The notes below the pieces were generated by a model. The model searched no databases. It was not told the origin of the DNA and was given only the letters and a program-made list of their open reading frames with translations. A stretch of 64,000 bases of DNA from Desulfosoma sp. (lineage in GTDB: Bacteria; Desulfobacterota; Syntrophobacteria; Syntrophobacterales; DSM-9756). A program made the translations under genes and the position numbers. The stretch covers positions 1 through 64,000 of the forward strand of contig JBBFKW010000007.1 in NCBI GenBank assembly GCA_037481835.1, read 5' to 3'. Positions 15,749 to 44,342 of the stretch are shown here, in pieces (the stretch's first letter is position 1; the number at the start of each line of letters is the position of its first letter).

Positions 15749-15784
15749 TGCCGTGCACGTCCCGGATCCTTGAGCGTTCTTGAT

Positions 15785-17638: not shown

Positions 17639-17644
17639 GGCGGC

Positions 17645-18535: not shown

Positions 18536-18689
18536 TATGTGCGGTCCTTGCCCGGGGCCTTTTTTCGGGAGCGGCTCCGGGGCTGCTCCGAGCCGGTTTC
18601 TTGGAGGAACCGGCTTGTATCAGGGATCTTACTCTTGGGCCATGAGCCTCATCCACACAGCGGGCTGCGGGCCCGTTGAAGAGTTCTCG

Positions 18690-19259
18690 TCAATTGGGCT
18701 CGCGCCGGCGGGCCGCACAGGCTCCAGCCTCCAAGGCCTTCATGCTGAGTTCCAATCGCGTCCCGGCCGATTGCCTGAGCGCCTCTTTCACATCGTCCAC
18801 GGTGCAAAAAAGAATCCCCGAAGCTGCCGCATGGCCCAAGAGAACAAGGTTTGCGGCGACCGCATCCCCCAGGTCCTTGGCGATTGAGACGGCGTCGAGG
18901 TCTCCGACCCCTTGGGGATCGGAGCGATTGCAAAAAACCGCACCGCCCGGCTTCAAAAGATAGCCGTGGGCGGCCAAACCTTCTTCATGGAGCGCCAACA
19001 GGACATCCGCTCGACCGGGGCGAATGAGCGGGCTCGTCAAAAAACGGGAACGCAGGGACGCGCCCTGGGAGGCGCATGGGGCATGGATTCGGGGAAAGAC
19101 CTTCAGGTGGCTGATGACATTTCCTCCCCGCTGGGCCATGCCATGGGTTTCGGAAACCAAAACGGACAGGTCCTTCTGGAGGGCCGCCTCCGCAAGGAGT
19201 TTGGTGACGTAAAGAACGCCCTGCCCTCCCAGACCGCTGACGGCGATTTGCTGTTGCAT
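18690..19259 (-). CDS. iorB: Indolepyruvate:ferredoxin oxidoreductase beta subunit
   Basis: GLGGQG, SETHGMAQRGG, NLVLLG. Start at MQQQIAV. Confidence 0.9.
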   Translation of the reverse strand: MQQQIAVSGLGGQGVLYVTKLLAEAALQKDLSVLVSETHGMAQRGGNVISHLKVFPRIHAPCASQGASLRSRFLTSPLIRPGRADVLLALHEEGLAAHGYLLKPGGAVFCNRSDPQGVGDLDAVSIAKDLGDAVAANLVLLGHAAASGILFCTVDDVKEALRQSAGTRLELSMKALEAGACAARRREPN

Positions 19260-19281
19260 GACGGCGATCCTTCTCTTTTCT

Positions 19282-27975: not shown

Positions 27976-28202
27976 GGCCTTACCTGCGGCGTAAGGATCT
28001 TCGCCGGCCCGGGTGCCTTCCCCCCCATGGCCTCCTTCGAGCCGGGTGTTTTGCCCTCTCGGCATCGTTTCTTCCAATCGCCCTTGAAAAACGACCTCTA
28101 TGAAAGGCCGCTTCATCCAACATCTCCCGGCACGAAAACCCGTCCGGAGAAGAGAGGCGCCCCTGGGGTGCCTCTGCCGGTGACTATGTGAAAAAATTTT
28201 TC

Positions 28203-28233
28203 TTGACGAGCGGAGAATCTGGTTTTGTATTTA
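28203..28233 (+). promoter_or_regulatory. Possible sigma70-type promoter of the giant oxidoreductase operon
   Basis: TTGACG at 28203, preceded by an A/T tract and followed by TGTATTTA. Spacing is imperfect. Confidence 0.3.
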
Positions 28234-28342
28234 GCGTTACCGCCGAGCGACGGTCCCCCATTGCCTACCCTCGATGGACGGCCCGCCGCGTTTTTTCCAA
28301 GTACCCATCGATGTGAGCCGCTGACGGCCAGTGCCTGGTATC

Positions 28343-28427
28343 TCCCGTGAAGCGGGCGCAGTCGCCCTGCGAAGCGGATTTCTCTTCTCCCGCGACGGTT
28401 CCTCATCCTCCCTTTTCCCGTGAAGCG
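28343..28427 (+). repeat. 12-bp direct repeat TCCCGTGAAGCG in the operon leader
   Basis: Exact copies at 28343-28354 and 28416-28427. Confidence 0.6.
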
Positions 28428-28463
28428 CCAGCGGCCGAAAGGACATGAAGGAGGATCAACGTC

Positions 28464-31400
28464 ATGGGTGAGACTCTTTTCCCTTGGATGCCCCACTTTC
28501 CCCTGTCTTTCCAAGTTCCAGACCGTCGCCTTCCCTTGGGGGGAGCGGCTTGGCCTGTACGCATAAGCGGCGACGGCATCGGGGCCTGGATGGAGACCTC
28601 TCGAGGTCGATATCGGATCGTTTCCGAAGAATGGCTTGCGGCCGGAATGCGCCTGGGATTGCTGGGCGCCCGTTTCGCCCAGGACGGGTTTGATCAAGAA
28701 GCCGTGCCGCCGGAGGCGGCATCTCTATGGCGGGAGCACCTCACGGACGGCCGGTTCTATGCCCTGATCGTCCATCCACCCCAGGAACCCGAAGCCGCTT
28801 TCGCCGCCGCAGTTTTTCTTCAGGATCCCGGTGGCGATTACACCCTCATGGAGACGCCTCTCCAAGGCGCGGATCTTTTTCCTTATCTTCTCGCCTTCGC
28901 ACAGGTTGTGGGCCTGCGCGTCCAGGATCCGGCACGATTCGACGATTACGGGGATTTTATGGTCCTCGGCGGCCACAACATCGTGGAACGGCACAGCACG
29001 GACAAGCGGGTGCGGTATTTATCCCGCAAGGTGCGCGTGGATGATGCCCAATGCACCCAGTGCCTTCACTGCGTGGGTTTGTGCCATGAGATGCGAACCG
29101 CCGTTACCCCTGCGGGCGTGGAGCTCCTCGGACCGGCGGAAGACCACTGCACCCATTGCGGATTGTGCCGCATGCGTTGCCCGTATCTCCTTTCCGTGCC
29201 GCACACGGAAGCCGCAGGGAGGGACGGATCGCGCCGAGCCCTGCTGGAACTAGGCGCCGGCGTCAAGCTTTACAGCAAACATGCCGCCGACTGGGCTGAA
29301 TGGTTGGAATTCCTGGAGGATTCACCCCCCCGGGGCTGGCCTTACACCGTGCATCCCGTCTTTTCCAGGGATGAGGCCGACGGCGGCATGCCCAGCCCTG
29401 GAACCCGACAAAAAATCCTGACGCCTCAAAGGCCGGAAGGGTTTCCCGGGGCGCTACCGGAAAAGGGCTTGGTCGTCACCTTGTTTTCTCACGCGGATGC
29501 GCTTCAGTGCCTCATCCGGCCGCGAGTCGTGGCCGGGCTGTTGTGTTCGACGGAACACGGCCGGGTGGAGCGGGACATCTTTGAAGCGGCTTTGGCGGCG
29601 GGGTTGGAAATCCGAGGGGCCGGGCTTTTCGAAACGTCCATCGTGGACGAAGAGGCTGGAGGCGGTCTTGCCGCTCAATCCGTCCGCGTTCGGGTTCCGG
29701 CAAACGATTTTACACGTTTTCTCAAAAAACTCGGGCTGTGGGACGGTCGCTCCATCGCCCGGTTATGGCGGGAAAACACCGTCGATCTCATCCTTGCCCC
29801 TCGGCAGGACGATGTGCCTGTAAGCGTCCAAAGGGAGGTGCTACGCGAAATCGGCCGGGAAGCCCTCATTCTGGCCCCCCATGTGCCCCAAAAACAGCCT
29901 GTGACCAAAAGCCCGCTTTTGAACGACGTGGTACGGCGCCTCCAAGACATCTTCCATCGGCATCCCGAGCTGTTACAGGCTGAATCGGAGACTGCCCGCA
30001 GACTTCTCGACGGTCTTCCTCGATCCGCCGCGCAGCTCCACGCCCGGTACGGCCCCATGGCGTTCGCCGGCGGGCATTCGGCGTGCCCCTCGTGTGCCGA
30101 AGCGCAAGTTTTGGCCGTTCCCGTGGCCATGGCCACGGCCATGAGTCTGGCGCGGGGCGAGGTGCCTCAAGTGGCCTTCACGTGCGAAACGGGATGCATG
30201 AGCGAAACCCTGAACAAGATGACGGAGACGGCCCAAAAAGTCCCCGGAGGTCGCACCGTTTTCGGAGGCGGGTTTGCCTTCGGCGAGGCCATGACCCAGG
30301 TGTTCGACCGAGCGGTGCGCATGGGATTGCTCAGGAAGGGCCGCCGTTACGTGGTGAGTCAAGGGGGCGACGGCGGGGCCGTGATCGGCCTTCCCGCATG
30401 GCTGAACGCATTGCGTCAGCAGGCTTTCCTCATTCGACAGCGATGGGCCAACGCGCTGCACTTCATCACCATTACCGACACCCAGGTCTATTCCAACACG
30501 GGCGGCGAAAGTTCCGCGACGTCCCTCCTGGGCATGGGGACCCTCACCACGCCCATTGGTAAGTTCCTCATGGGCAACCAGAAAATTCAGTGGGCGCTCA
30601 TCAATTTGGCCGCCGAATTCCCCGGTGTTCTGGTAGGGATGGGACACAGCGCCGATCGGGCGTCCATCCAGGAATTCTGGCTGCTCGCCGACCGGTTGGG
30701 ACAATCGGCCATCCGCTGGGATGTGACGCCGTGCCCGGAAACGGGCAAATTTTTCGGGCAGGATCCCGACGACTACGCCCGGATCATGGCCCATGCGGGC
30801 ATGCTGCCTCAGGTGGTCTTCTACGGCCGATATCGAAAACGGGTCGCCCCCTATCATCCGCAAGACCGAGGGAAACCTTTCGACGAATGGCGCAAGGATC
30901 CCAAACCCTTGCTCTATTGGGTGTCCCGGGATCAGCGCTACAAGGCCATGCTCGTCAAGGATCCGACCACCGGTGAATGGGTCCCTCGGAACGCCGCGGC
31001 CCGGTTTCTCATCATGCAGTTGGAAACCTACCGGGATCAGATGAACTGGCAGATCGACTTGGAAACCCGGCTGATTCTTCAGGCGGAAAAACGGGTCCAG
31101 GAGTTCCTCGGCGCCTTGCGGACCCGATGGGAATCGTCCCGGCACAGCGGGGCGGCGTTTCCCTACGCCGTGCTTTTCGACGAGCAGGGGCATCTCAAGC
31201 CGCACTTCGCCTACAGTTTGGAACGGGAGATGGTCCTGCGGCTCTTGGGCCAGGAAGCGGGGGTGCGGTACGCTGATCTTCGCGATGCCTTCCAGGACGA
31301 AGAGGAAAAGCGATGGCAGGCGGTCCTTCGGGCTTTGGAAACTCTGGAAGCGTTTGAAGCCGGCCTGGAACCCTTCGGCGACGATGAAGAGCGACTCATC

Positions 31401-34400
31401 CGGTTGCGCACGGAGGCCCGCGAGGCCTTGGATCAGGTGCAAAAAGCCTACGGCAGGCTGCGGGATGCGGTCACGGCCCTTTGGGCATCCGATCCCGTCG
31501 GTAAAGAACTGCTGGGAACCGGAGACGACTCCAACGCCGGTGCCGACGAGGCCTCCGCGGGGCCGCTCTTCGGCATCCTCGATCGCATCCTGGAAGAAAG
31601 GACCCTGGCCGCATGGACGGAACTTCAGCAGTATCGACTTTCCCAGCGCCTCAGAAGGGATTTTCTCCAAACCGGCGGCCTTATCCGCGTGCACCACGTG
31701 CAGGCCGAATTCCGGGAACGGGAAGCGCTCCGGCAATCCGTGTCCCGGCTTGGACCGTTTTCCATCGCCGTGGCGAGCTTGGCCGGCGATAGAGGGATTG
31801 CCATCAACCGGGTTTTCGCGCAGTTTCTCACCGCCAAGGGCTGTTGGGCCGGCATGGCCTGGCAGTTCGGCTCCTCCAAAAGAGGCACCCCCGTCCTGTC
31901 GGCGACTTTCGTGGACAGCCGCCCGCTGGAACGCAAAGATGCCATGTTTTCCTTTTCGACTCTTGTGGTGGCGGTGACCAACTTCGAAGAGATGAAAAGA
32001 GACCCGGATTTGCTTTTCGGGTCCCTGAGGGTCGGCGGCACCGTCATCGTCAATCATTGGGAGGATCCGGAACGGCTCTGGCGGGATGTGGTGCGTTTCT
32101 GCCCGGAAAACATCCGGCCCGTCGTCACCGTGGTGCGCGATCGGGCCTATAAGGACGGCGGCTGGACGCCGGAGCGGCTGGAACGGGAACTGGATGAAGC
32201 TTTGGAATCCCTGGGTGTTCGCCCTGGATCCCGAGAAAGTGATCGAATCCGAACCTTGTGCCGGGCTTTGATTTCGTGCCGGATGGTCACGGTGGATATG
32301 GACGGCATCATGGAGCGGGTTTCCGGCCGGCCGGGAATGGTGTCCAACCTTGTGGCCGTTTCCCCCATCTTGGACGCCTTGAGCGCAGCCGGCCTCCCCT
32401 TCGACTGGGCACAGGACAAAGATGCGCTCGTCCAAGGCTTTCCCGATGCGGTTCTGAAAAATCCCAAGCTCCTCGGCCTCTATCGGGAAGCCATGGAAAG
32501 GGCTCGTCGCGAACGCCGCGAGTGGCCGTCCCCCGTTGCAGGAAATGGTGCCGGCAAAAGCGATTTCGGGGAAGCATCCGCGGGAGCCACACCGGCCTTT
32601 CCCGCTGGGCAAAGCCGGGGGTGCGCGGAAGATCCCGGGGATGCGCTCATGATCATGGGTGGCACATTGGCGGGGATGGTTCTCTCCCAGATCGCCCTGC
32701 CGGAACACCCGCTTTTTTACGTGGGATTCCCCATCACGCCCGCGGGCAATCCCTTCTATGCCATGGCGGAAGCTTTTGCCAACGGGCACCCTTATATCGT
32801 GGTCGATGAGCTGAACCCGTCGGAAAAAGTGGCCGCGGAAAAGCTCTTGGGAGTGGCCCGAACGGGACTGTTTCTCCCCGTGACGTTTACGGCTTCCCAG
32901 GGCTGGCGGCTTTTTACTGAAATCATCCCGCAGTTCGTCGGCGCTCGCTTGGAAGGTCTCTTTCTTTTGACAAAGAGGGCCCTTGCGGCGCCTAACCTCA
33001 ACATCGAGGAAAGCCATACCGATTTCATGACCTTTAGGGACGACGGCGGGATCATGCTGGCCCCCAAGAGCATTCAGGAATACGTCCCCTGTTTGTACCT
33101 GGCTCGGCTGCTCACTCACTTCGCCAAGCTCCCCGTCGTTCTTTCCATCGGCGGCATCACGGACACGCACAAGATCGGCCTGACCCGGGTGCCGCCCGAC
33201 ATCGTGGTGCGCCGCTGGCTTACGGAGACGCTGCAGGGATTCGATTTCTTGGAAGGGCGGATCGTCAATCCATCCGGCCACCGGGTGGTGCACGGTCCCA
33301 GCTGCACCGCCGCCACGTACCAGGAAACCCAAAGCGAAGTGGAAAAAGCCCACGCCATGGTGTGCCGGGTGTGGCCCTATGCGGTGGAAGCCGTGCGCCG
33401 GCTGACCGGGGTGGCTTTGAACCCGCTGGAAGTGCGGGTGGCCGGAACGGCCATGGAAGAAGCCGTCCCAGAGAGCGCTTCCTCCGTCGAAACTCTGCTC
33501 ATGCTCCAAGGCTCTCTCTTCCCCAACGCCGTGGAAGCTTTGCAGGAATTGGAAGAAGAAGGCTGGCGGGCAATGGGCTGCGTGTCCGTGCGGCTCATGA
33601 ACCCCTTCCCCGAAGAAGAGATCCAACATTGGATCGGCGGTCTCAGGGCTTTGGCGGTTTTGGATCGATCCAACAGTTTCGGGTCCGTCCCGCCGCTGGC
33701 TTCCCGCATTTTCAACGCGTGCGCCCGTCGCCGAAAGGATGGATCCAGAGCCGGGCCGATCGTTTTGAGAACTCTTGTGGGAGGTTTGGGCGGCCGGGAA
33801 ATCACCGTGCCGGAAATGAAAGCTCTGATCCTTTCCACCCATCTTCTTTTCAGTCCATGGGAACCCTGGGAAGGTGAAGCCCTGGGACGATGGGTAGAGG
33901 AAGACGGCGCGCTTCGGGATTGGATCGAAGAATTGGCTGCTTTGGAGATGCGAGCTCTGGAACGGCATACACGGGTACCGAAGCCTGTCAAGGCCCAGGG
34001 GCCGGATGGAGATCTGTTCTTCAAAGAGCGGATCCGCCGCCAGATTGTCCAACGGGACTATGTGGGCCTGCTCGCCCACTACAACCAGGTGGAATTCGTG
34101 GCGCCGAGAGAAGTTTACGGAGAGACGGCCCTGAGGCAGCAGCTGGTCATCGAGCTGGAAAAGCGCCTCGCTCGGCTGGCCGCCGAAAGCGGCCGCCGTG
34201 ACTGGCGCCGTGCCTTGGTGCTCCTGCACTACGGGACTTCGGAGGAGGATCGCGAAAGAGCGCGAATCTTGCTTTCGGGATTGACCGAGGCCCCCTTTGC
34301 AGGGCGACTGCTGCGTCGCTACGGCCTGGACGGTGATGAGAGAGGAGGGCCCGTCGCGGCCCAAGCCCGCCCAATGGACCTTTCCTCGGGTGCGCCCGCC

Positions 34401-34952
34401 GTCCCGTGGACGTGCCTCCTTGAAGAGGAAGAAAGAAAGGCCGAAGCGCTTCCCGCCGTGGCCTACGAGGCGGAAGAAGCCGAGCGCATCGAAAGAGCGA
34501 TTCGGAACCTTGTGGATCTTTCGAGCAGGCGGCCGCTGTTCCTCAACCCCGAAGACTACGATCGTCTCCTCCTGGAAGCCCTGGCTCACGAGGCGGATTC
34601 CCAGTGGGCCCGGATCGTGACGGCCTCGGGGGAACCCTCGGCTTCCCAGCAGGAAGGATACCTGTGGACCTATCGGGATGTGATCGATCGATGCCTGCAC
34701 CGCGAAGTTCTGGGGAAATTTTACGCTCCGGAAATTGAAGAGCTTTTCGACGGGCAGGGCCGGGATGGGCTTAGAAAACTTTTCGAAAGCCTCGAACCGT
34801 CCCTGGCCTTGGAAGAAAAGAAAAGGATCGTGGAAGAGCATTTGCGGCGCCGCATGTCCACTGAATGGACCAAGTCCCATGATTTTTATCTGGAAGTTTT
34901 CCGAACTTGGGTGTGGCCCGAAATCAGCGGACAGGGCGCAATGGGCACATAG
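28464..34952 (+). CDS. Giant single-chain 2-oxoacid:ferredoxin oxidoreductase (PFOR/OFOR family), domain order ferredoxin-beta-gamma-alpha, with unknown extra domains
   Basis: AAGGAGG RBS. Ferredoxin CTQCLHCVGLC and CTHCGLCRMRCP (~29052-29185). Beta HSACPSC, TGC, GGDGG, DTQVYSNTGG, TPCP (~30070-30740). Gamma SLAGDRG, FGSSKRG (~31780-31890). Alpha FPITP, SE, TASQG, RALAAP..HTD, DRS, GGLGGR (~32720-33800). Confidence 0.88.
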   Translation: MGETLFPWMPHFPLSFQVPDRRLPLGGAAWPVRISGDGIGAWMETSRGRYRIVSEEWLAAGMRLGLLGARFAQDGFDQEAVPPEAASLWREHLTDGRFYALIVHPPQEPEAAFAAAVFLQDPGGDYTLMETPLQGADLFPYLLAFAQVVGLRVQDPARFDDYGDFMVLGGHNIVERHSTDKRVRYLSRKVRVDDAQCTQCLHCVGLCHEMRTAVTPAGVELLGPAEDHCTHCGLCRMRCPYLLSVPHTEAAGRDGSRRALLELGAGVKLYSKHAADWAEWLEFLEDSPPRGWPYTVHPVFSRDEADGGMPSPGTRQKILTPQRPEGFPGALPEKGLVVTLFSHADALQCLIRPRVVAGLLCSTEHGRVERDIFEAALAAGLEIRGAGLFETSIVDEEAGGGLAAQSVRVRVPANDFTRFLKKLGLWDGRSIARLWRENTVDLILAPRQDDVPVSVQREVLREIGREALILAPHVPQKQPVTKSPLLNDVVRRLQDIFHRHPELLQAESETARRLLDGLPRSAAQLHARYGPMAFAGGHSACPSCAEAQVLAVPVAMATAMSLARGEVPQVAFTCETGCMSETLNKMTETAQKVPGGRTVFGGGFAFGEAMTQVFDRAVRMGLLRKGRRYVVSQGGDGGAVIGLPAWLNALRQQAFLIRQRWANALHFITITDTQVYSNTGGESSATSLLGMGTLTTPIGKFLMGNQKIQWALINLAAEFPGVLVGMGHSADRASIQEFWLLADRLGQSAIRWDVTPCPETGKFFGQDPDDYARIMAHAGMLPQVVFYGRYRKRVAPYHPQDRGKPFDEWRKDPKPLLYWVSRDQRYKAMLVKDPTTGEWVPRNAAARFLIMQLETYRDQMNWQIDLETRLILQAEKRVQEFLGALRTRWESSRHSGAAFPYAVLFDEQGHLKPHFAYSLEREMVLRLLGQEAGVRYADLRDAFQDEEEKRWQAVLRALETLEAFEAGLEPFGDDEERLIRLRTEAREALDQVQKAYGRLRDAVTALWASDPVGKELLGTGDDSNAGADEASAGPLFGILDRILEERTLAAWTELQQYRLSQRLRRDFLQTGGLIRVHHVQAEFREREALRQSVSRLGPFSIAVASLAGDRGIAINRVFAQFLTAKGCWAGMAWQFGSSKRGTPVLSATFVDSRPLERKDAMFSFSTLVVAVTNFEEMKRDPDLLFGSLRVGGTVIVNHWEDPERLWRDVVRFCPENIRPVVTVVRDRAYKDGGWTPERLERELDEALESLGVRPGSRESDRIRTLCRALISCRMVTVDMDGIMERVSGRPGMVSNLVAVSPILDALSAAGLPFDWAQDKDALVQGFPDAVLKNPKLLGLYREAMERARRERREWPSPVAGNGAGKSDFGEASAGATPAFPAGQSRGCAEDPGDALMIMGGTLAGMVLSQIALPEHPLFYVGFPITPAGNPFYAMAEAFANGHPYIVVDELNPSEKVAAEKLLGVARTGLFLPVTFTASQGWRLFTEIIPQFVGARLEGLFLLTKRALAAPNLNIEESHTDFMTFRDDGGIMLAPKSIQEYVPCLYLARLLTHFAKLPVVLSIGGITDTHKIGLTRVPPDIVVRRWLTETLQGFDFLEGRIVNPSGHRVVHGPSCTAATYQETQSEVEKAHAMVCRVWPYAVEAVRRLTGVALNPLEVRVAGTAMEEAVPESASSVETLLMLQGSLFPNAVEALQELEEEGWRAMGCVSVRLMNPFPEEEIQHWIGGLRALAVLDRSNSFGSVPPLASRIFNACARRRKDGSRAGPIVLRTLVGGLGGREITVPEMKALILSTHLLFSPWEPWEGEALGRWVEEDGALRDWIEELAALEMRALERHTRVPKPVKAQGPDGDLFFKERIRRQIVQRDYVGLLAHYNQVEFVAPREVYGETALRQQLVIELEKRLARLAAESGRRDWRRALVLLHYGTSEEDRERARILLSGLTEAPFAGRLLRRYGLDGDERGGPVAAQARPMDLSSGAPAVPWTCLLEEEERKAEALPAVAYEAEEAERIERAIRNLVDLSSRRPLFLNPEDYDRLLLEALAHEADSQWARIVTASGEPSASQQEGYLWTYRDVIDRCLHREVLGKFYAPEIEELFDGQGRDGLRKLFESLEPSLALEEKKRIVEEHLRRRMSTEWTKSHDFYLEVFRTWVWPEISGQGAMGT

Positions 34953-34966
34953 GACGGGGGGCGACC

Positions 34967-37900
34967 ATGGGCATGGAAGGACTCAGCTCGCAGTATTCCC
35001 TGGAACAATTCTATGCGGAGCTTTCCACAGACCAGGAACGAGCCTTTCACAAGACGGCGCGAGACGTCACCGCGGCTTTGGCCGAACGCTTCCGGTTCCG
35101 GGATGCCGTTCGGGACGTGCACAACGCTGTGGAACAAGCTCTCGTCGCCCTGCGAAAAATCGACATGGCTTGGGACAGCGCCCCCGAAGGGGCGTGCCTG
35201 CGGGTTTTTCGCAGGAAATGGTTCGAGGCGGCGCCTCTTGTGGAACATGTCCGACGTGTGGGTTTTTTTTCAACACACCCCGTGGATCTTCTCCCCTGGG
35301 TCCGATGGTTCCTCCTTGTGGAAAACTACCATCGGACGGACCCTGTCCACCACGACCGCCGGTTGGACCGCCTGCGCTTCCTCAAGACCGAAAATCCCCA
35401 CGCCCCGTGCATCAGCCACGAAGATGTGCTTCTGTGGCTCGAACACCAGCTTCTTGTCCACGAACGCGAGCCCTTGTCCGCGATCGCTGAAAAATGCGCC
35501 GAGCAGCTCCGAAACCGGTTGGATGAAACCCTCAGGCCCCACACGGCCCTCGATGCTTTCTTTTTCGTCCTGTTGCGATGCCACCAGTTTTGTCTGGCTG
35601 AAACCATGACCGAAGACGATGCGAGGCGTCTTCAAACCGTCCTGGGATGGCGCCGGTTCCTCTCTCTGACGGATCTCATGCTCGTGGTCATCCATCGGGT
35701 CCTCGATCGGGAACCTTTGCCGGACGCCGTGACGGTTCTCGATGAGCTGATGGCGGATGGGTTCCAGATTCGCCATGCGAGCTTCAAAGACCCGTACGAA
35801 GCGGATGTGGTGGCCGCGGAAGATACGGCCCGCTTCGATGAGACGACGATCCGGCTGTTCGCATCGGTGGATAAGCTTCACGGCATTTTGGAAAGAGATT
35901 GCGCGGCGGTCTTCCAAGAATGGCAGGCTCGGCGGGGAAAGGTTTTGGACGAGCTTGAGGAGGAGATTTGCGAGCTGAGGGAGATGATCGCCAACCCGCT
36001 GCCTCGAAAACACCTCATCGGCCGAACCATTCGATTGCTAACGTCCTGGTGCTTGGCTCACGGGAAGCCGGGTGACGAGGCCTGGGAAAACATGTCGTCC
36101 GAAGAAGGCCTTAGAGCGCTCGTCGATCGGGTTCGGGCGTCTTTTCCCGAAGGGGTTCTCAAGGCTTTGGTGCGCCAGCGGCGCGGGTATGAATTGACCA
36201 CTCGAAAAGAGCTGGCCCTTCGGATCGAAAGGGAATGCCGCCTGCAGTGGGAAAGTTTTCGAAAAGAGCCGGGTTCTCGAGCCTACGGGGAGGTTGATTT
36301 CCGGATTGCTGAGCGCGTTCGGGCCTTGGCTTCGGGGCCGGTCCCACCGGAAAAGGGTGATGCGGACGCACTCAAGGTCGAAACCCTTGCCGGCTTGGCC
36401 GACCTAATCCGGCGGCGCAAGATTTCCGATGAGGCGGTTTCGTCGTCGTTATGCTTGGGATTGGACGTGTTTTTCCCCACCATGGGAACGCCTTTGGAAT
36501 TTGTGGAAAGCCTAAGAGACTTGGTACCTTACGAAGAATTGTGCAACCGCGCTCCGTCGGCGCAAAAGGGCGGACCGGAGGAGGCTGTGGCCTTGTACGA
36601 GAGAACCCTGGCCCGTTTTGCCGGGGCGTTCTACCGATTCGTTGTTGCCCAGGGCAAGAAGGAGGCCGGCCTGCCGCTTGAGCTTTCTTTAAGCGAAATT
36701 CCTGAACTGGCGGCGGTGATGGTCCCTCCGTGGGGTGCCCTGACCGAGGGGTTGCTGCGCAGTGCCGTCCGTAAATTTCAGCATCAATCGGCGCCTCTTT
36801 ACCGCCGCCGGAAGAATCCCATCTGCTTGGATGAAGAAGAATTCGGCGTGCACCTGGCTCATTTCGTCATGTGCGAGCTCAAGGCCGATGTGAAGCACTC
36901 CGCCGAAACGGGGACCCTGGCTGCGGTGCGAAAAGCCGTGACGGAGGAAGCTCTTCGGGTCGTCGTTCCGGACCGCGTCCGAACCCTCACGAGCCCGGAA
37001 AGATTCCTACTTCAATGGGCGGGGATCTTGGACTCCCGGCAGGGCGCCGAAGAGCTGCAGAGAGCCGTGGCGGGGGCTCTTCCCGGCTTGGACTGCGGTG
37101 CGTGTGGGGAAAGCCGATGCGCCTCCTTTGCCCAGGGACTCCTCCAAGGGCGGCGTCGCATCCGCGAGTGCGTACATCTCAGCCCCGCGGGGCAGCGGCA
37201 CATCGAGGCCATGGTGCAGGAACATCTCTCCAAAGTCTCGCGAGGAAACGGTGTCGGATCGGCCTACGAACTTTTCCGGAATCCGGCCCTGTGGAGGCGT
37301 CTGCCGAAAGCGGACCCATTGAGGCGTTCGGTAGTCAAGGTGGTAGATGTGGGCCGACAAGAGGAGCGGCGTCGGGTCATGGATCACGCTTTCCGGAGCT
37401 GGCAGGGGCTCGATTCCAAGCCGGACGTTTACAAGAGGCCGGACCCGGAGGCTTTTTATCAAGCTCTTGTGGAAACCATCGGGTATGAGGCCACCGAAAG
37501 GATTCGCCCCGAGGAACGCCGGTGGTTGGCCGAGCACGGCCGAATCCGCCTGGAGAAGGAACTGGAAAAGCTGGAGAAGCGCACGGATTGGCTCACGCTG
37601 GAGCGGCTCCTCATTTCCGGCGGGCCTTCGAGCCTTGAGGCGGATCCCGAAACCCAAGCCCTGCGCGCCTATGAGGCGATGGCCTACCTGCATCAGCTGC
37701 ACGAGGACGACCGACGGCGCCTTTTGGTCCATCGCCTGGAAAGCTTCGAAGAGGGGTTTTCCCAGTGGTGGAATCAAGATCTCCTCACCATGAACCACCC
37801 CCGCTACCGGATCGATAACTGGGAAGAATTTTCCAAGGTCATCAAGAACGCCTTTTGGCATCAGGAAAATTTCCCGCCGCCCCGGCGTGTGGCGGAAGAG

Positions 37901-39832
37901 CTCTTGGAGCACATGGAGCAGAGCGGCGAAAAGGAAGTCTTTTTCCGGGATGTGCTGTCTTCATGGGTCCAGGACTTTCGGGGGGCGGGGGATCTTTTCC
38001 CGCAAGGGCGGAGGGACGAGGCGGGAACCGACCGCCGGGAAATCGAAAACTTGTCCGATCTGCGCCGGATTTTGGCTCGGTTGTGCCGGGATACGAGGCC
38101 TGCCGCCGAAAAGGCGGACTTTTCCGCATCGGTGCCGGGTTCAACCCGCCGTCGCATCGACGCCGTTTGGAAGGCCTTTCAAAAGTCGCCCGTGACTTTC
38201 GCGGCGACCTTTTCCCTGTCCGACGGGGATTTCACCGACCTGGAAAAACAGCATGTGAGGGATCGCCTCGGGGGGCAGCTCCCGGCGGATCTTTCCCTGG
38301 TGCCGTCCATGGCCGGAGGCCTTGAAGCTCTCGTGCTGGGATTGATCGGCGCCCTGCTGGAACAACAGGATCATCAAAGGCGGTTGGCTGCCCTGACGGA
38401 AGAAGCCGTGCGCTGCGAACAGGCCGAAAAGCTTCCGCAGGAAGCTGTGCGGGCGTGGATTTTCGAGGCCCTGGAGGCAGGCCATGAACCTCGGCAGATT
38501 CTGGAAAAAGTGCTGGGGTGGTTTCACCAGTTTCCCCTGTGGAAAGACCGGATCCTCGTGGATGCGCTCCAGAAGATGGTGAGCCTGACCCGCTGGCGAA
38601 ACCTCCTGGAAACTTTCCCGGGGGTGGTTCTGGAAGGGATTCCTGCGGAAGTCAGGGAAAGCTACGCGCGAACGTTTTCTCGATGGATGGAAAGGGTCGC
38701 AGAGGCCGTAGGGCGATTAGGGGATTTTGATCGAGAACGGCTGCTTTACTACCTATTTGTTCTGGCCAAGAGGGAAGGCGATTTGGACGTCATCACGGCC
38801 CTTTTGCGGGAAATCCGGGAGACGTCGGATGTCATCGAGGCGGCGTGGCTGCAGTTCACCAACGATCGGCTGACGGAAGTTCTGCCCGCCCCTCCGACCA
38901 AGGGCCTGGAAGCTCGCTACAGCCTGCTGATCAACCGCCTCAAGGACCTGGAACCCGTGTGTCGAGGTCTGATGCAAGGCCTGTCTCGAAGCGAAAAACC
39001 TGATGTGGCGGCGGCGGTGCGCGAACTGCAGCTCTACATGCGATTTCACATGGTTCGCGATGAGGCCGAAGCCATGGATGCGGACGCCTGTTTCGAAACT
39101 TTTTGGGAGGAAGGCTACAACCTGGAAGGGTTGGACAAGGAAACGCTCCGTCAGGCTTTCCTGGCGGAATGGAAAAACCGGGAACGATGGCGAAAAGACC
39201 GGGTGTGGCTCATGACCATGGCCGTCGCCCGAAGGCTTGCATCCCAGAGCCATGAGCTCTACGAGGCGGACAAGGCTTTTGCCAAAATGCGCCAGGGCCT
39301 TCTCAAGGAGGATGGACCTGAAGAAGGCCGGGATGTGTGCCGGCGCCGGGGAATCGCCCTGGGCACGGTCAAGGAAGCCATGTACCGCGAGTTGTCCGAA
39401 CTCTTGGAAAGGGAACGGATGGATTCCTTCAGGACGCGTATTCGCCAGATCGTGCATCAGTTGGACCGCAAAAGATTGCGGATCGTGCAGGCCTGGTTTT
39501 CGGGATCCATCGACCGCTACAGCGTTTTCCACGTGCTCAGGCAGTATCAGAAGCGGGCTGAGCCGCCGAGCGACGACGATTTTCGAGAGTTTTTCATGGA
39601 ACAGTGGTTTCGGCGTGTGGACCGGCTGCGGGAATCGGATCGCGCGGACCGCGACGATCGGATTCGAGAAGTGGATGAAGGATTTCACGCCCTCTTGGGG
39701 GTGTCTCCTCTGGCGCTGGAAAAAGAAGCGGCAAAGGAGGCAGCCGAGGCCTGGAAGTCCTGGATCCGAGAGACCGAAGAAGAGATCCGTCGTAGGCTGA
39801 TTGCGGACGAGGTGCCTACGGCGCCCTTATGA
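34967..39832 (+). CDS. Very large protein (~1620 aa) with one central Fe-S domain (RnfB/AcsC N-terminal type); otherwise unassigned
   Basis: LPGLDCGACGESRC...ECVHL at ~37080-37175. Starts 14 bp after the OFOR stop. The rest is charged and helical-looking, with no other motif recognised. Confidence 0.8.
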   Translation: MGMEGLSSQYSLEQFYAELSTDQERAFHKTARDVTAALAERFRFRDAVRDVHNAVEQALVALRKIDMAWDSAPEGACLRVFRRKWFEAAPLVEHVRRVGFFSTHPVDLLPWVRWFLLVENYHRTDPVHHDRRLDRLRFLKTENPHAPCISHEDVLLWLEHQLLVHEREPLSAIAEKCAEQLRNRLDETLRPHTALDAFFFVLLRCHQFCLAETMTEDDARRLQTVLGWRRFLSLTDLMLVVIHRVLDREPLPDAVTVLDELMADGFQIRHASFKDPYEADVVAAEDTARFDETTIRLFASVDKLHGILERDCAAVFQEWQARRGKVLDELEEEICELREMIANPLPRKHLIGRTIRLLTSWCLAHGKPGDEAWENMSSEEGLRALVDRVRASFPEGVLKALVRQRRGYELTTRKELALRIERECRLQWESFRKEPGSRAYGEVDFRIAERVRALASGPVPPEKGDADALKVETLAGLADLIRRRKISDEAVSSSLCLGLDVFFPTMGTPLEFVESLRDLVPYEELCNRAPSAQKGGPEEAVALYERTLARFAGAFYRFVVAQGKKEAGLPLELSLSEIPELAAVMVPPWGALTEGLLRSAVRKFQHQSAPLYRRRKNPICLDEEEFGVHLAHFVMCELKADVKHSAETGTLAAVRKAVTEEALRVVVPDRVRTLTSPERFLLQWAGILDSRQGAEELQRAVAGALPGLDCGACGESRCASFAQGLLQGRRRIRECVHLSPAGQRHIEAMVQEHLSKVSRGNGVGSAYELFRNPALWRRLPKADPLRRSVVKVVDVGRQEERRRVMDHAFRSWQGLDSKPDVYKRPDPEAFYQALVETIGYEATERIRPEERRWLAEHGRIRLEKELEKLEKRTDWLTLERLLISGGPSSLEADPETQALRAYEAMAYLHQLHEDDRRRLLVHRLESFEEGFSQWWNQDLLTMNHPRYRIDNWEEFSKVIKNAFWHQENFPPPRRVAEELLEHMEQSGEKEVFFRDVLSSWVQDFRGAGDLFPQGRRDEAGTDRREIENLSDLRRILARLCRDTRPAAEKADFSASVPGSTRRRIDAVWKAFQKSPVTFAATFSLSDGDFTDLEKQHVRDRLGGQLPADLSLVPSMAGGLEALVLGLIGALLEQQDHQRRLAALTEEAVRCEQAEKLPQEAVRAWIFEALEAGHEPRQILEKVLGWFHQFPLWKDRILVDALQKMVSLTRWRNLLETFPGVVLEGIPAEVRESYARTFSRWMERVAEAVGRLGDFDRERLLYYLFVLAKREGDLDVITALLREIRETSDVIEAAWLQFTNDRLTEVLPAPPTKGLEARYSLLINRLKDLEPVCRGLMQGLSRSEKPDVAAAVRELQLYMRFHMVRDEAEAMDADACFETFWEEGYNLEGLDKETLRQAFLAEWKNRERWRKDRVWLMTMAVARRLASQSHELYEADKAFAKMRQGLLKEDGPEEGRDVCRRRGIALGTVKEAMYRELSELLERERMDSFRTRIRQIVHQLDRKRLRIVQAWFSGSIDRYSVFHVLRQYQKRAEPPSDDDFREFFMEQWFRRVDRLRESDRADRDDRIREVDEGFHALLGVSPLALEKEAAKEAAEAWKSWIRETEEEIRRRLIADEVPTAPL

Positions 39833-39941
39833 AAAAGGCCGCACCCTTATTTTCCGCCCTTTTCGACCTCGGCGGGTCGTCACGGCGTGATGAACGCCGC
39901 GGCCGGCCACGGAAAAGAAGAATATTCAAGGAGTCGTCGCC

Positions 39942-42900
39942 ATGAGCGCCTATCAACCTTTGGACCCGAACATGACATGTCGTCCCTCGTGGTGGGTGGA
40001 ACGTCTTCGGTGCGTTTCGGGCCGCCCAGTTCCAGTTCGGGACACGCGCATCCCGAAAGACGGGAAACCTCTGGCGGCGGTCGTCGGTGCCCTTCGGGCA
40101 GGATTGGACGAGCTGCGGTTGCTTGTAGGGGCGGATTCGGAGGCTTTCCGGGGTTTTGTCGAAGGGCTGCGCGCCGAGGCCTTGGGACCGTGGGGAGAGG
40201 ATCCTGAGCGCCGTTTGGTCGGGCTGGTTAAAGAGGCTTTGGGGCGAAGGGATTGGCGCGAAAAAGACATCATCGACATGATTCTCGCCTATCTCACGGC
40301 GCTGGGTCCTTCGCTGCCCGAAGATGTGAGAATGTCTTGGGAAAGGTTGGAAAGGGCGGCGAAGGCGCGCAACGGTGCCGAGCGCACGCTCATGGAAGGC
40401 CTCATCAGCGAAGCGCGGGGGCGTCTTGGCGGCTTGGCGTGGGCCCGGGAGCATGCCTTGGAAAAAGGACCCCGTGAGGGCGCCTTCGGCCTTTCTTCCC
40501 TTCGATGGCTTCGAGAAACACTGGCCGCCATGACGGGATGCGCCGGCGATCTCGCCGACCGTTCCGATGAGGAGTTGGCGCGCCTGAGTCCGGCCGAGAT
40601 ATGGCAGGATTTGGACGAGGCTTTGACGAAAGCCTGGGGGAAAACGGGCCGGAGCTTTCCCGTCAAAGATTTGGAAAAAGCTTCCTTGTATCTCATGGAG
40701 GACATGGGAGCGAGGAGTCCCAACCATCGGTTCTTCATCCGTTTTCTCATTGAAGACGAAGCGGCCTATCGGCGCCTCTTGAGAACCTGTTACGCCGACG
40801 AAACGGTGCAGAGGGCCTGTTTGGATCAGGAATGCGAGCGGTTCAACCGTCTTCCGGAACATGCGGCCCACCGGGTGTTCTACGACGCCGACGAAAAAAC
40901 GTGGTGGCTTAAAGCGTTTTTCCTCAGGCCGGACGTGGTGCACTGTTTCGTGGAACGGGAAAGAGCCAAGGATATTTACCATGTCCTCGCGGGACTGGAA
41001 CCTAAAGCCTATCTGCCTCGGGTGCTCCATGAAGTTCAAGGGCTTTTCGGGTATGTGACACCGGAGGCGTGCCGCCACATCGTCCAGCGCCTCGGCTTGG
41101 ATCCCGAAGACGTTCTTCGGGTGATCGCCTCCTACAAGCAGTACAGCGCCGATCCCTCGGGGGACATCATCATCTACGTGTGCAAGGGAACAGCGTGTTT
41201 TCTCCGCGGCCAGCCTGAACTGTCGCGTCGGCTCACTGAGGAAATCGGGGCGGAAGTGGACGCCGTGGGCCGCTACGGGGTGCAGTATGTGGAGATGGAT
41301 TGTTTCGGGGTGTGCCATCTGGCTCCCGTGGTGCGCGCCGGAAATCGTTTCTATGGAAAGCAAAAGGCGGAAGATATTCCCCGGCTGGTGAATAGCCTCA
41401 TCCAGGGCCCCGACTACGAAAACCGGCAACGGTTCGTGTCGCGCCTTTTGGAAAAGATGCGTGCCGACAGCGTCAGCGAGCCCGTGGATGCTTTGAGGGT
41501 CGAATCCGTGGGAAAATTTTCCAAAGTCGACCGCTTGGGAGTGCGGGAAGAGGGCGCGTGGGACGATTCTTTGGAGGGATGTTCGGTAATTTTGGACGAC
41601 AAGGGCGCTGTTTCCATACTCCTACCGGACGGTTTCGCGCACGGCGTAGGCCGACTGGTCCCTCGGGTTCTTCCTTTCATCATGCGGGATGCGGACGGTT
41701 TCAATCGTTTCGGCGCCGTCGTTCTCGATGATCATCGTCGGGCGGCACGGGTGTTGGGCGTGCCCGACCTGACGGACGAGGAGGTGATCCGGGGCGCGCT
41801 TCGTCCGACGGCTCGAGTCGTGGACGGCCGCGTGGTGCTCTCTTCCCATGAAAAGACCGTGGTGCTGGGCCCTTATACGGATCGGGTGCTCATCGCCGAC
41901 GCCCCTGATGCCTACGTCGCCGTTGTTTTGGCGGAAGGAGGTGCTTCAGGTCCTTTCGTCGAAACCGAAGCAAGAGGCCCTGACAGGGTTGCGTCCGAAG
42001 AGGCCTCTTTCCGGGCGGGCCAAGACCGGGTTGTTTTGGATTTCGCCGCTGCAGGGCGTCCGTCCTGCATGGCGTCCTATCGAGCGGCGGGGGGCTATGA
42101 GTCGGTCTACCGGGTGCTGGGATTTCGCGGGGAGCCCCCGTGGGATCCGGAACGGATCATCGCGGAAGTGCGGGACGCGAAGCTTCGGGGACGGGGCGGG
42201 GCGGGCTTTCCCACGGGACGCAAGTGGGAAGCCATGTTACGGGCCGTGTGTCGGATCGATCCCGAAGACGGCAACCAAGACCCGGTGAAACTCATCGTGG
42301 CCAACGGCGACGAAGGAGACCCGGGGGCCTTCATGGACCGCACGCTCATCGAGGAAAAACCCCATCAGGTTCTGGAAGGAATGATCTTGGCCGCCGTTGC
42401 CGTGGGCGCCCGCTACGGGGTGATCTATGTGCGAAAAGAGTATGAAGACGCCGTGAGAAGCCTGGAGGACGCGCTTTTCGAGGCACGGCGCTGCGGGTTT
42501 CTCGGGCGGGATATTTTTGGAGTGTCCGGATTGCACTTTGACGTGGAAATCCGATTGGGGGCCGGGGCGTTCGTGGCCGGAGAGAAGCGGGCCATCATGC
42601 GGGCCATTGAAGGAAAGCCTGCAGAACCCACCATCAAGGCCCCGTCCAACACCGTGCGCGGGCTTTGGGGAAAGCCCACACTGCTCAACAACGTGGAAAC
42701 CTTTGCCAATGTCCCCGTCATTCTTCACCGAGGGAGCGCCTGGTATGCCCGGCTGGGCACGTCCCGAAGCGGCGGGACCAAAATCTTTTCCGTCGCCGGC
42801 ATTGTCAAGAAAACCGGGCTCGTGGAAGTCCGCTTCGGCAAGACCCTTGGGGATGTCATCGAAATCTGCGGCGGAATCCAGGACGGAAAGAAACTCTCCG

Positions 42901-43607
42901 GAGTCCAGATCGGGGGGCCGTCCGGAGCCATCCTGTCCTTGACCGGCGCTCGGGCTTACCTGCTCCAGACGCCTTTGGATTTCGACACGTTCAACGATGC
43001 CGGCGCCATGTTGGGTTCCGGCGGGTTGGTCTTTATCGGAGAAGACGACGACGTCGTCCGGCTGGCTCGCCATTTTACGGATTGGCTTTCGGAAGAATCC
43101 TGCGGTCAATGCCCGTCGTGTTTTCGAGGCACCCGGGCCTTGGGGCGTGTCCTGGACAAGATCCTGGCCGGTCAGGGCACAGCGGGCGATATTCACGAAT
43201 TGTGGGCTTTGAGCGATGTGGTGCGGGCCGGAAGTCAGTGCGGCCTAGGAACAACCGCCGCCAACCCCGTGACCAGCGCCTTGCGGTTTTTCCCCGCGTC
43301 CTTTTTCCACTACCTGCTCGGCAACCCGGAGATGCAACCTCGCGATGTCTTTGAGGCCCTGGAGGCCCTGAGGCTCCTGACACGACAGGAAATCGTTCGT
43401 GTTGCGGGAGTGCGCCGACACGTGGAAGGGGCGGCTTTCACGCTGAAACGGCATCTGGTGCGGTTCCTGGTGGAAGAAATCGAAAAAATCGATCGCTACC
43501 GGCCGTTGCCTTCCCGAATGACCGATCGGTTGCTCCGGTTGCTGGGCCTGCCGCGCTACGAAGTGGGCCAAAGAGAAGTCGTCATGGAATGGCGCGATGT
43601 GGCATAA
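39942..43607 (+). CDS. Fused NuoE-NuoF (HydC/HydB-like) NAD(P)H-flavin/Fe-S module with N-terminal extension
   Basis: AAGGAG RBS. NuoE [2Fe-2S] CKGTAC...CFGVC. NuoF LRGRGGAGFPTG.KW, NGDEGDPGAFMDR, NNVETF, GGPSG, and [4Fe-4S] CGQCPSC...CGLG. Confidence 0.9.
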   Translation: MSAYQPLDPNMTCRPSWWVERLRCVSGRPVPVRDTRIPKDGKPLAAVVGALRAGLDELRLLVGADSEAFRGFVEGLRAEALGPWGEDPERRLVGLVKEALGRRDWREKDIIDMILAYLTALGPSLPEDVRMSWERLERAAKARNGAERTLMEGLISEARGRLGGLAWAREHALEKGPREGAFGLSSLRWLRETLAAMTGCAGDLADRSDEELARLSPAEIWQDLDEALTKAWGKTGRSFPVKDLEKASLYLMEDMGARSPNHRFFIRFLIEDEAAYRRLLRTCYADETVQRACLDQECERFNRLPEHAAHRVFYDADEKTWWLKAFFLRPDVVHCFVERERAKDIYHVLAGLEPKAYLPRVLHEVQGLFGYVTPEACRHIVQRLGLDPEDVLRVIASYKQYSADPSGDIIIYVCKGTACFLRGQPELSRRLTEEIGAEVDAVGRYGVQYVEMDCFGVCHLAPVVRAGNRFYGKQKAEDIPRLVNSLIQGPDYENRQRFVSRLLEKMRADSVSEPVDALRVESVGKFSKVDRLGVREEGAWDDSLEGCSVILDDKGAVSILLPDGFAHGVGRLVPRVLPFIMRDADGFNRFGAVVLDDHRRAARVLGVPDLTDEEVIRGALRPTARVVDGRVVLSSHEKTVVLGPYTDRVLIADAPDAYVAVVLAEGGASGPFVETEARGPDRVASEEASFRAGQDRVVLDFAAAGRPSCMASYRAAGGYESVYRVLGFRGEPPWDPERIIAEVRDAKLRGRGGAGFPTGRKWEAMLRAVCRIDPEDGNQDPVKLIVANGDEGDPGAFMDRTLIEEKPHQVLEGMILAAVAVGARYGVIYVRKEYEDAVRSLEDALFEARRCGFLGRDIFGVSGLHFDVEIRLGAGAFVAGEKRAIMRAIEGKPAEPTIKAPSNTVRGLWGKPTLLNNVETFANVPVILHRGSAWYARLGTSRSGGTKIFSVAGIVKKTGLVEVRFGKTLGDVIEICGGIQDGKKLSGVQIGGPSGAILSLTGARAYLLQTPLDFDTFNDAGAMLGSGGLVFIGEDDDVVRLARHFTDWLSEESCGQCPSCFRGTRALGRVLDKILAGQGTAGDIHELWALSDVVRAGSQCGLGTTAANPVTSALRFFPASFFHYLLGNPEMQPRDVFEALEALRLLTRQEIVRVAGVRRHVEGAAFTLKRHLVRFLVEEIEKIDRYRPLPSRMTDRLLRLLGLPRYEVGQREVVMEWRDVA

Positions 43608-43665
43608 AGGCAAAAGTGAAGAGGGAAATCCAGCTGTCAGGAAAACGTTGCCCTGGAGGGGGACC

Positions 43666-44235
43666 ATGATGACCAAAGAGAGAACGTACTTCCAAGCCTT
43701 TCGAGAAATGGTGCAGGTGGTGAGCGGCACCTTGGATGTGCAGGTGGTGCTGCAGGCCATGGTGAGCACGATTCCCCAGGTCTTGGGGGCCAAGGCCTGT
43801 GCCGTCCGCCTCCTGGACCCCAAAGGCCGCACTCTGGAATTGGCCGCCAGTCACGGACTCAGTGACGCCTACATCCACAAGGGGCCTGTCGATGCGGACC
43901 AAAGCCTTGCCGAAACGCTTCAAGGAAAGACCGTCGTCATCCACGATGCATCGACGGACCCTCGAGCCCAGTACGGCGAAGCGGCCCGCAAGGAGGGGAT
44001 CGTGGGCATCTGTTCCGTTCCCCTTAAGGTCAAAGGGAGGGTGATCGGGGTCCTGAGAATTTACACCGAGGAGCCCAAGGAGTATGTCCCCGACGAGCTG
44101 GCCTTTGTGGAGGCTTTGGGAGAATTGGGAGGCATTGCCATTGAAAACGCCCGTATGTACGAGCGGCTGAAAAAGGATTACGAAGAGGTCATGAGCGATG
44201 TCTTTCGCTTTGTGGGGTATCGGCGCAGCCTGTGA
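43666..44235 (+). CDS. Stand-alone GAF domain protein
   Basis: LELAASHGLS..Y, SVPLKVKGRVIGVL, AIENARMY, with GGAGG RBS. Confidence 0.87.
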   Translation: MMTKERTYFQAFREMVQVVSGTLDVQVVLQAMVSTIPQVLGAKACAVRLLDPKGRTLELAASHGLSDAYIHKGPVDADQSLAETLQGKTVVIHDASTDPRAQYGEAARKEGIVGICSVPLKVKGRVIGVLRIYTEEPKEYVPDELAFVEALGELGGIAIENARMYERLKKDYEEVMSDVFRFVGYRRSL

Positions 44236-44315: not shown

Positions 44316-44342
44316 TAAAGTTTCCCGCCGATTCGCCGATAG
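44316..44342 (+). promoter_or_regulatory. Sigma28 (FliA)-type promoter upstream of the HD-GYP gene
   Basis: TAAAGTTT-N11-GCCGATAG, matching the consensus TAAAGTTT-N11-GCCGATAA at 15 of 16 positions with exact spacing. Confidence 0.8.

Follow-up and report, generated by a model that had tools for sequence, protein, structure and literature searches.

Three consecutive giant genes, here called A, B and C, lie on a 64,000 nt stretch of DNA from Desulfosoma sp. (contig JBBFKW010000007.1, forward strand; this whole stretch is referred to as the window, and all positions are in window numbering). Their products probably form a single 2-oxoacid:NAD(P)+ oxidoreductase that is of the pyruvate type, does not bifurcate and moves electrons through an Fe-S shuttle of its own. 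This reading is built on cofactor motifs and their conservation, on synteny, on the loss of bifurcation clusters, and above all on natural fusions of the genes, which are the strongest evidence for one machine.

Results

Layout of the locus

The three genes are followed by a fourth, small gene, D:

28464–34952, + strand: gene A, 2162 residues, single-chain 2-oxoacid:ferredoxin oxidoreductase (OFOR)
34967–39832, + strand: gene B, ATG start at 34967, 1621 residues, all-helical protein with one Fe-S domain
39942–43607, + strand: gene C, 1221 residues, NuoE-NuoF fusion
43666–44235, + strand: gene D, ATG start at 43666, 189 residues, lone GAF domain

The intergenic gaps are 14 bp (A/B), 109 bp (B/C) and 58 bp (C/D), and the gap 5′ of gene A spans 27976–28463. 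The longest open reading frame (ORF) for gene B begins further 5′, at TTG 34907. The four ORFs, with these sizes and gaps, are as described in the original prediction, an earlier annotation made from the window sequence alone. The cofactor motifs on which that prediction relied are also real: a thiamine pyrophosphate (TPP) site and Fe-S motifs in A, an Fe-S motif in B, and a NuoEF-type flavin mononucleotide (FMN) module in C. The inventory by motifs comes to TPP, five [4Fe-4S] clusters, one [2Fe-2S] cluster and FMN.

Gene order and natural fusions

Families A and C are carried by 14 of 60 relatives, and B by 13; the relative lacking B is represented by an assembly (G004) in which contig breaks fall within A and C. 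Of 28 genome loci found with A, 20 continue into B, and the remaining eight break off within A. C comes next at 17 of the 20 loci with B, and three break off within B. The 19 metagenome loci found with B give the same picture, with A upstream in 15 (no upstream DNA in the other four) and C downstream in 14 (the other five end inside or just past B). Synteny, a check proposed with the original prediction, is conserved: the order A-B-C held at every related locus with enough DNA to be informative, although the loci are related and partly redundant, so that the counts are not independent.

The hosts named are Syntrophobacterales, Desulfobacca, Desulfobacterales and unassigned Deltaproteobacteria, and the matches include the cultured Desulfacinum infernum DSM 9756, D. 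hydrothermale DSM 13146 and Desulfosoma caldarium. B was present in seven of 401 genomes sampled across the phylum, this genome included; neither A nor B turned up in two closed relatives. In the assemblies of G029, L056 and L057, A, B and C are each broken over several frames, probably through assembly errors, with pseudogenes as the alternative.

A profile search with the C-terminal half of B against 1.84 billion representative sequences returned 34 matches, three of which are fusions. P0103 (2980 residues) joins B to C, the C part being 49% identical over 1191 columns. P0114 (2242 residues) joins the C-terminal half of B to a C that is 36% identical. P0117 (7473 residues) carries all three parts in the order A-B-C (A with E 5e-110, B with profile E 1e-26, C with E 2e-51) and retains the GCMSE and GEKR motifs of A and C discussed below. 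P0103 and a homologue of A, P0043, come from contigs that are both 17,676 long, which suggests that the two proteins are encoded on one and the same contig. In P0117 the A-B-C block is surrounded by large flanks (residues 1–1100 and 6830–7473), and residues 1–545 gave no Pfam match over the cut-off.

Gene A: a permuted single-chain OFOR

Pfam, NCBIfam and PDB alignments agree on the domain order delta-beta-gamma-alpha in A:

residues 190–241: Fer4 (delta) domain, two [4Fe-4S] clusters, eight Cys within C197–C239
from residue 533: beta/TPP domain, PorB-like; C541, C544, C578 and C757, GDG 635–637, N678
residues 1112–1289 (about 1100–1300): gamma (CoA) domain, POR gamma
about residues 1410–1790: alpha part, with POR_N (1418–1631) and PFOR_II (1676–1784); T1425, E1454, R1505
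no family match: N-terminal domain, delta-beta segment and C-terminal domain; a helical linker separates beta and gamma

The 12 cluster cysteines, GDG, N678, T1425, E1454 and R1505 are invariant wherever covered (69 or 70 of 70 homologues). The OFOR TPP/Mg motif (G635-D636-G637 and N678), together with the catalytic alpha glutamate E1454, is found in all covering homologues. In the alignment with the solved pyruvate:ferredoxin oxidoreductase (PFOR) of Desulfovibrio africanus, the catalytic residues T1425, R1505 and N678 of A match Thr31, Arg114 and Asn996. The gamma domain (PF01558) scores weakly in A itself (E 0.013) but is annotated in many homologues, and its G-[DE]-RG and SKRG motifs are kept in 70 of 70. 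The family is tight, with 51–100% identity over residues 525–1800, and most members have ~2100 residues; no longer forms were found in a search that covered 3785–5000 residues. Taken together, A looks like an active, if divergent, OFOR, for which pyruvate is the most likely substrate by default.

The spacing of the ferredoxin domain of A fits the PorD type best, and matches to polyferredoxin and PorD-type proteins outrank those to formate dehydrogenase (Fdh) and HydA. We also considered that this domain might be a remnant of BfuA/NuoG; this was not supported, in view of the same ranking and because no 2Fe-2S domain precedes it. A long open frame lies antisense to gene A (29973–34880, − strand, 1635 residues), and long antisense frames recur in the relatives; we treat it as a codon-bias shadow of gene A.

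Gene C: a NuoE-NuoF fusion that has lost its bifurcation clusters

Gene C encodes the following parts:

N-terminal domain of about 350 residues: no family match
residues 357–485: NuoE domain; [2Fe-2S] cluster (C1) ligands C414, C419, C454, C458
insert of about 200 residues between NuoE and NuoF: no family match
about residues 690–1125: NuoF/BfuB core, with FMN domain (743–925) and SLBB (949–990)
residues 1041–1121: [4Fe-4S] region (B1/N3); C1054, C1057, C1060, C1100
tail of about 100 residues: no family match

The NuoF part is closest to structures of bifurcating BfuB (HydB/NfnB), with E of about 1e-110 versus 1e-85 for Nqo1/NuoF, and the FMN domain, SLBB and B1 cluster of BfuB and the C1 cluster of BfuC are all present. 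The clusters B2–B5 and the ferredoxin domain that define BfuB, and that are stated to be absolutely conserved or defining (PMC9304861), have no counterpart. Residues were counted over 28 distinct C sequences, drawn from 42 loci with a match, 39 of which cover NuoF. The C-terminal CxxCxxC for two [4Fe-4S] clusters (B3/B4) occurs in 0 of the 28. The B2 ligands (Cys, Cys/Thr, His, Cys, Cys) are missing: the positions read D/N1037, L1049 and mostly Y1124, and there is no conserved distal Cys. The thioredoxin-like domain for B5 is also missing from C, since the single thioredoxin-like 2Fe-2S domain is the NuoE part and the insert holds no invariant Cys. No BfuA/NuoG domain was found in A, B, C or D; within the Bfu family, BfuA is absent only from type 4. 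The genome's own canonical BfuB has both the B2 ligands and the C-terminal CxxCxxC. With B2–B5 missing and no BfuA present, C is not a canonical bifurcating BfuB.

The nucleotide pocket is changed as well. In NfnB, E274 binds the adenine ribose of NAD and F294 is the second stacking Phe (PMC11829005); these residues map by spacing to K882 and S902 of C, and K882, R883 and S902 are each found in 28 of 28 sequences. The GEET motif has thus become GEKR (K882, R883), and PPFP has become APSN. The HydB of T. kivui, which uses NADP (PMC10021017), has Ser in place of the Glu and Arg340 in place of the Phe. The replacement of the Glu by an invariant Lys-Arg suggests that C would use NADP. In the fusions, GEKR is kept in both P0114 and P0117, while S902 is kept in neither.

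Gene B: a helical protein with one Fe-S domain

The sole family match in B is PF04060 (FeS) at residues 705–736, with four invariant cysteines (C710, C713, C718 and C735), and this domain is similar to the cluster domains at the N-termini of AcsC (4djd_C, E 9e-6) and RnfB. AlphaFold2 models of residues 20–1000 and 640–1621 (pLDDT 80.0 and 81.7) are nearly all helical. Their only fold match was RnfB (9eri_B), confined to the Fe-S domain (Z 6.0–6.3, root-mean-square deviation about 2 Å (2.0) over 59 residues). The queries were whole models of ~980 residues, for which Foldseek gave nothing at E ≤ 0.001 and a wide VIA search nothing at Z ≥ 8; such whole-model searches do not establish a new fold for B. 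The ESM Atlas gave no usable match for B or for residues 1–350 of C, and profile comparison showed no internal homology (probability 0.1% for the N-terminal part of B with C, and 0.4% for B with A). A complex prediction for B 925–1599 with C 30–349, pieces chosen by guess and run without controls, scored 0.00 and carries no weight either way. We propose that B is a scaffold with a tethered electron shuttle.

Discussion

Proposed mechanism

In the machine that we envisage, A, B and C would assemble into one soluble complex of ~5000 residues per protomer, probably dimeric; OFORs are dimeric. A would decarboxylate a small 2-oxoacid, most likely pyruvate, on TPP to yield an acyl-CoA, and the electrons would move from the beta cluster on to both delta clusters of A. 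The Fe-S domain of B, held on its large helical scaffold, would then carry them to the B1/N3 cluster of C, standing in both for free ferredoxin and for the missing BfuA/NuoG. The PF04060 domain is mobile in Rnf and in CFeSP. We assign the feeding of B1 to B because BfuA/NuoG is absent and the Fe-S domain of B is the only other carrier encoded. Finally, the FMN of C would reduce a pyridine nucleotide. The pocket makes NADP+ the more likely acceptor, with NAD+ a lesser possibility and any other acceptor improbable. Oxidation is the likely direction, since the path from pyruvate (−500 mV) to NAD(P) (−320 mV) runs downhill (Table 1, PMC9304861).

The original prediction had made an OFOR the catalytic partner of a NuoEF-type module, in a complex that might bifurcate and might run in either direction. 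The partnership is supported by the synteny and by the B-C and A-B-C fusions. The canonical bifurcating option is not supported, because C lacks the B2 ligands, B5 and B3/B4 and there is no BfuA, and on the same grounds carboxylation is unlikely.

Alternative readings

Several points weigh against the proposed machine. Fusions of this kind are rare: the clusters of P0103 and P0117 have one member each, and that of P0114 includes two of full length. P0114 lacks the N-terminal half of B and the Fe-S domain of B. P0117 starts with a signal-peptide-like segment and ~1100 unrelated residues, and may be a multi-enzyme giant that absorbed an operon, which would make it weaker evidence than a clean fusion; such giants are described for Omnitrophota. 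The substrate is left unfixed by the family scores of A, which lie far under the cut-offs for named OFOR families (best 79 of 550 bits). C keeps all of the signatures that Losey et al. reported for bifurcating beta subunits (A232, M234, F367 and GGPSG; PMC7311640), as A796, M798, F949 and GGPSG (G991–G995), in 28 of 28 sequences. As to the acceptor, WorB (9MQX) has GESS, without the Glu, and yet was solved with NADH, so that loss of the Glu alone is no proof of NADP; K882 and R883 could pair with the invariant E895 instead.

The same machine might act on another 2-oxoacid (2-oxobutyrate, or a branched-chain, aryl or polar one), with the GAF protein sensing the substrate, a reading that we consider unlikely but worth keeping in mind. 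It would account for the identity of only ~30% between A and ordinary OFOR alpha subunits, and for the beta loop, which reads GCMSE instead of the GCMEI, GCLEV or GCMYV found elsewhere. Moreover, the genome holds 10 other POR_N matches, including one canonical gamma-delta-alpha-beta set, so that pyruvate would already be covered. However, the best family matches of A are of the PorA/PFOR types, and L1512 and I1514, the equivalents of Leu121 and Ile123 of D. africanus PFOR, are kept in the homologues. E581 as the mark of a new substrate is weakened by the genome's own PorB motif, GCMEI; it may be the ordinary PorB glutamate displaced by one position. No pathway genes are conserved near A at the 28 genome loci. 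It is less probable that the proteins are co-regulated but only loosely coupled, with A acting as a ferredoxin-dependent OFOR, C as an NAD(P) reductase that depends on ferredoxin or on B, and B serving in structure, anchoring or maturation. A does have its own delta domain, sufficient for a normal OFOR, and B has no recognisable catalytic fold; against this stand the invariant gene order, the co-occurrence at all informative loci, the three separate fusion proteins, and the persistence in P0117 of the large family-specific extra domains of A and C.

Lower again we place a non-canonical bifurcating or confurcating enzyme in which the ferredoxin port is formed, in place of B2–B5, by the delta clusters in A or by B's Fe-S arm, so that either NAD(P)H and reduced ferredoxin together drive a reductive carboxylation of acetyl-CoA, or pyruvate reduces both acceptors together. 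The similarity of C to BfuB structures and the retained signature residues and C1 cluster fit such an enzyme, but signature residues can be inherited without function, and the B2 ligands, B5, B3/B4 and BfuA are missing; those of these features that were counted occur in none of the 28 C sequences. The Rex-like half-site upstream of A (see below) would, by the usual Rex logic, imply expression at high NADH, but it is only a half-site. Por-Bfu has been proposed to make pyruvate in the bifurcating manner (PMC9304861). The most remote version that we considered is a new type of flavin-based confurcating enzyme, in which a swinging Fe-S arm on the 1600-residue scaffold of B, itself without a known fold, gates a BfuB-derived FMN core devoid of B2–B5. 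NADPH, alone or together with ferredoxin, would then power the fixation of CO2 onto acetyl-CoA, and the particle, of megadalton size, would be a single polypeptide in some lineages.

If the preferred reading of a non-bifurcating oxidoreductase is true, some sulfate reducers have a ferredoxin-independent pyruvate:NAD(P)+ oxidoreductase built on the FMN module of complex I, which yields NADPH or NADH directly from the oxidation of pyruvate. C would then be a natural deletion experiment on the Bfu mechanism, in which the signatures and the C1/B1/FMN core are kept and B2–B5 are lost, and would test what bifurcation needs, and the GEKR pocket would be a candidate for the element that switches complex I-type flavoproteins to NADP. 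By an estimate based on the domain boundaries, some 3400 of the 5004 residues match no family, and B models confidently with no PDB match outside its Fe-S domain in searches with whole models.

Gene D, regulation and neighbouring genes

Two candidate promoter elements flank the genes:

28187–28231, + strand: conserved promoter block; TGTGAAA half-site abutting a −35 element, TTGACG (28203–28208), with a weak −10 candidate 17 nt on
44316–44341, + strand: sigma28-type promoter, TAAA-N15-GCCGATA, belonging to the next gene (HD domain) and marking the downstream boundary

Gene D follows C in 12 of the 15 genome loci that reach past C, and is possibly a ligand sensor, a frequent but optional fourth gene. 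More distant forms have a double-GAF tandem version (L085:16530–17612, L086:16403–17467 and L068:5048–6112); in L068 it lies upstream on the opposite strand.

The pattern TGTGAAA-N8/9-CTTGAC occurs upstream of A in 18 of the 28 genome loci (L041–L068), across two families, and the loci without it have no upstream DNA or are more distant forms. TGTGAAA looks like one half of a Rex box, and the genome encodes a Rex N-terminal domain. A sigma70 scan of the window did not pick this site. The form with a 9 nt spacer gave 0 matches in the window, where the spacer is 8 nt, and a genome-wide search for the pattern also gave 0 matches, so that no regulon is established; Rex-type control of the gene A promoter is a lead only. 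The leader 5′ of A is not unusual in structure (z 0.19) and had no Rfam match. A response regulator and a histidine kinase are each found in 10 of the 28 loci and lie upstream of A on the opposite strand in L042–L045, L050, L053, L055, L066 and L067; neither is present in this window.

The separate downstream promoter of the original prediction was borne out, as the sigma28-type site had one match in the window and none in 100 shuffles. Its −10 element stops ~10 nt 5′ of ATG 44352 of the HD-domain gene, which therefore probably begins at a later codon. The absence of a recognisable hydrogenase, formate dehydrogenase or complex I subunit also held for the 32 other ORFs, selected from the 208 in the window, that were scanned with NCBIfam (E ≤ 1e-15). 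About 7 kb upstream, an aryl-acid cluster (12388–21153, − strand) encodes indolepyruvate oxidoreductase alpha and beta, a Liv-type ABC transporter and two PaaK-like CoA ligases; it is not among the conserved neighbours of gene A at the 28 genome loci.

Three other redox loci in the genome were noted. At G000:C7:110976–114635 (L088), alpha and beta genes come immediately after a gene for a GltD-like FAD/NAD domain that is fused to a ferredoxin domain, a Pad-like layout that makes it a second candidate NAD(P)-linked OFOR. A canonical BfuC-BfuB pair with a GEST motif (L101, G000:C1:136000–146500) adjoins complex I membrane genes and has no BfuA among ORFs of at least 180 residues, and resembles Nuo-Bfu type 4. 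Another NuoE-NuoF fusion (L098, G000:C14:37248–40763), with GEET and B2-like ligands and no ferredoxin tail, lies upstream of nuoB.

Comparison with known systems

The TPP, CoA-domain and three-cluster motifs of A are common to PFOR (Moorella thermoacetica 6CIN, D. africanus 1B0P and the four-subunit 9BT4), and A has equivalents of Thr31, Glu64, Arg114 and Asn996. The domain order differs (delta-beta-gamma-alpha in A versus alpha-gamma-delta-beta in PFOR), and A has about 1200 extra residues and would be linked to a flavoprotein, whereas PFOR relies on free ferredoxin. C shares the FMN domain, SLBB GGPSG, B1 and C1 with the BfuBC core of HydABC, NfnABC and StnAB (7P5H, 8A6T, 9BOV and 8OH5; E about 1e-105 to 1e-116), but its C- and B-type parts are fused around the 200-residue insert, B2, B3, B4 and B5 are lost, and GEET and PPFP are replaced. 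B shares the four-Cys motif and fold of the PF04060 domain with RnfB and AcsC (CFeSP), but carries this domain mid-chain in a helical protein of ~1600 residues, without a membrane anchor or corrinoid domain.

The overall reaction would be like that of the NAD-dependent phenylglyoxylate dehydrogenase PadEFGHI and the eukaryotic pyruvate:NADP+ oxidoreductase PNO, which oxidise a 2-oxoacid with a pyridine nucleotide and without free ferredoxin. The flavin module of these enzymes is FAD-based (GltD-like or P450-reductase-like), and A-B-C has a complex I-type FMN module instead; the match to PadG is weak (34.5 of 700 bits).

The coupling of an OFOR to a NuoEF module was predicted by Schut et al. 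in 2022 as Por-Bfu (PorDEFG + BfuABC; PMC9304861), so that the concept behind the original prediction's unrecognised architecture was not new. The architecture itself we found nowhere described in the literature searched, which did not extend to the supplement of that paper with its 12 Por-Bfu sequences; membership of that set requires a ferredoxin domain, which C does not have. Por-Bfu has seven subunits, including BfuA and a full BfuB with B2–B5. A-B-C consists of three giant chains; its OFOR is permuted and single-chain, BfuA and B2–B5 are missing, the Fe-S scaffold is novel and the nucleotide pocket is altered. It is best regarded as a variant of the OFOR-NuoEF coupling already predicted, in an architecture that is undescribed as far as searched.

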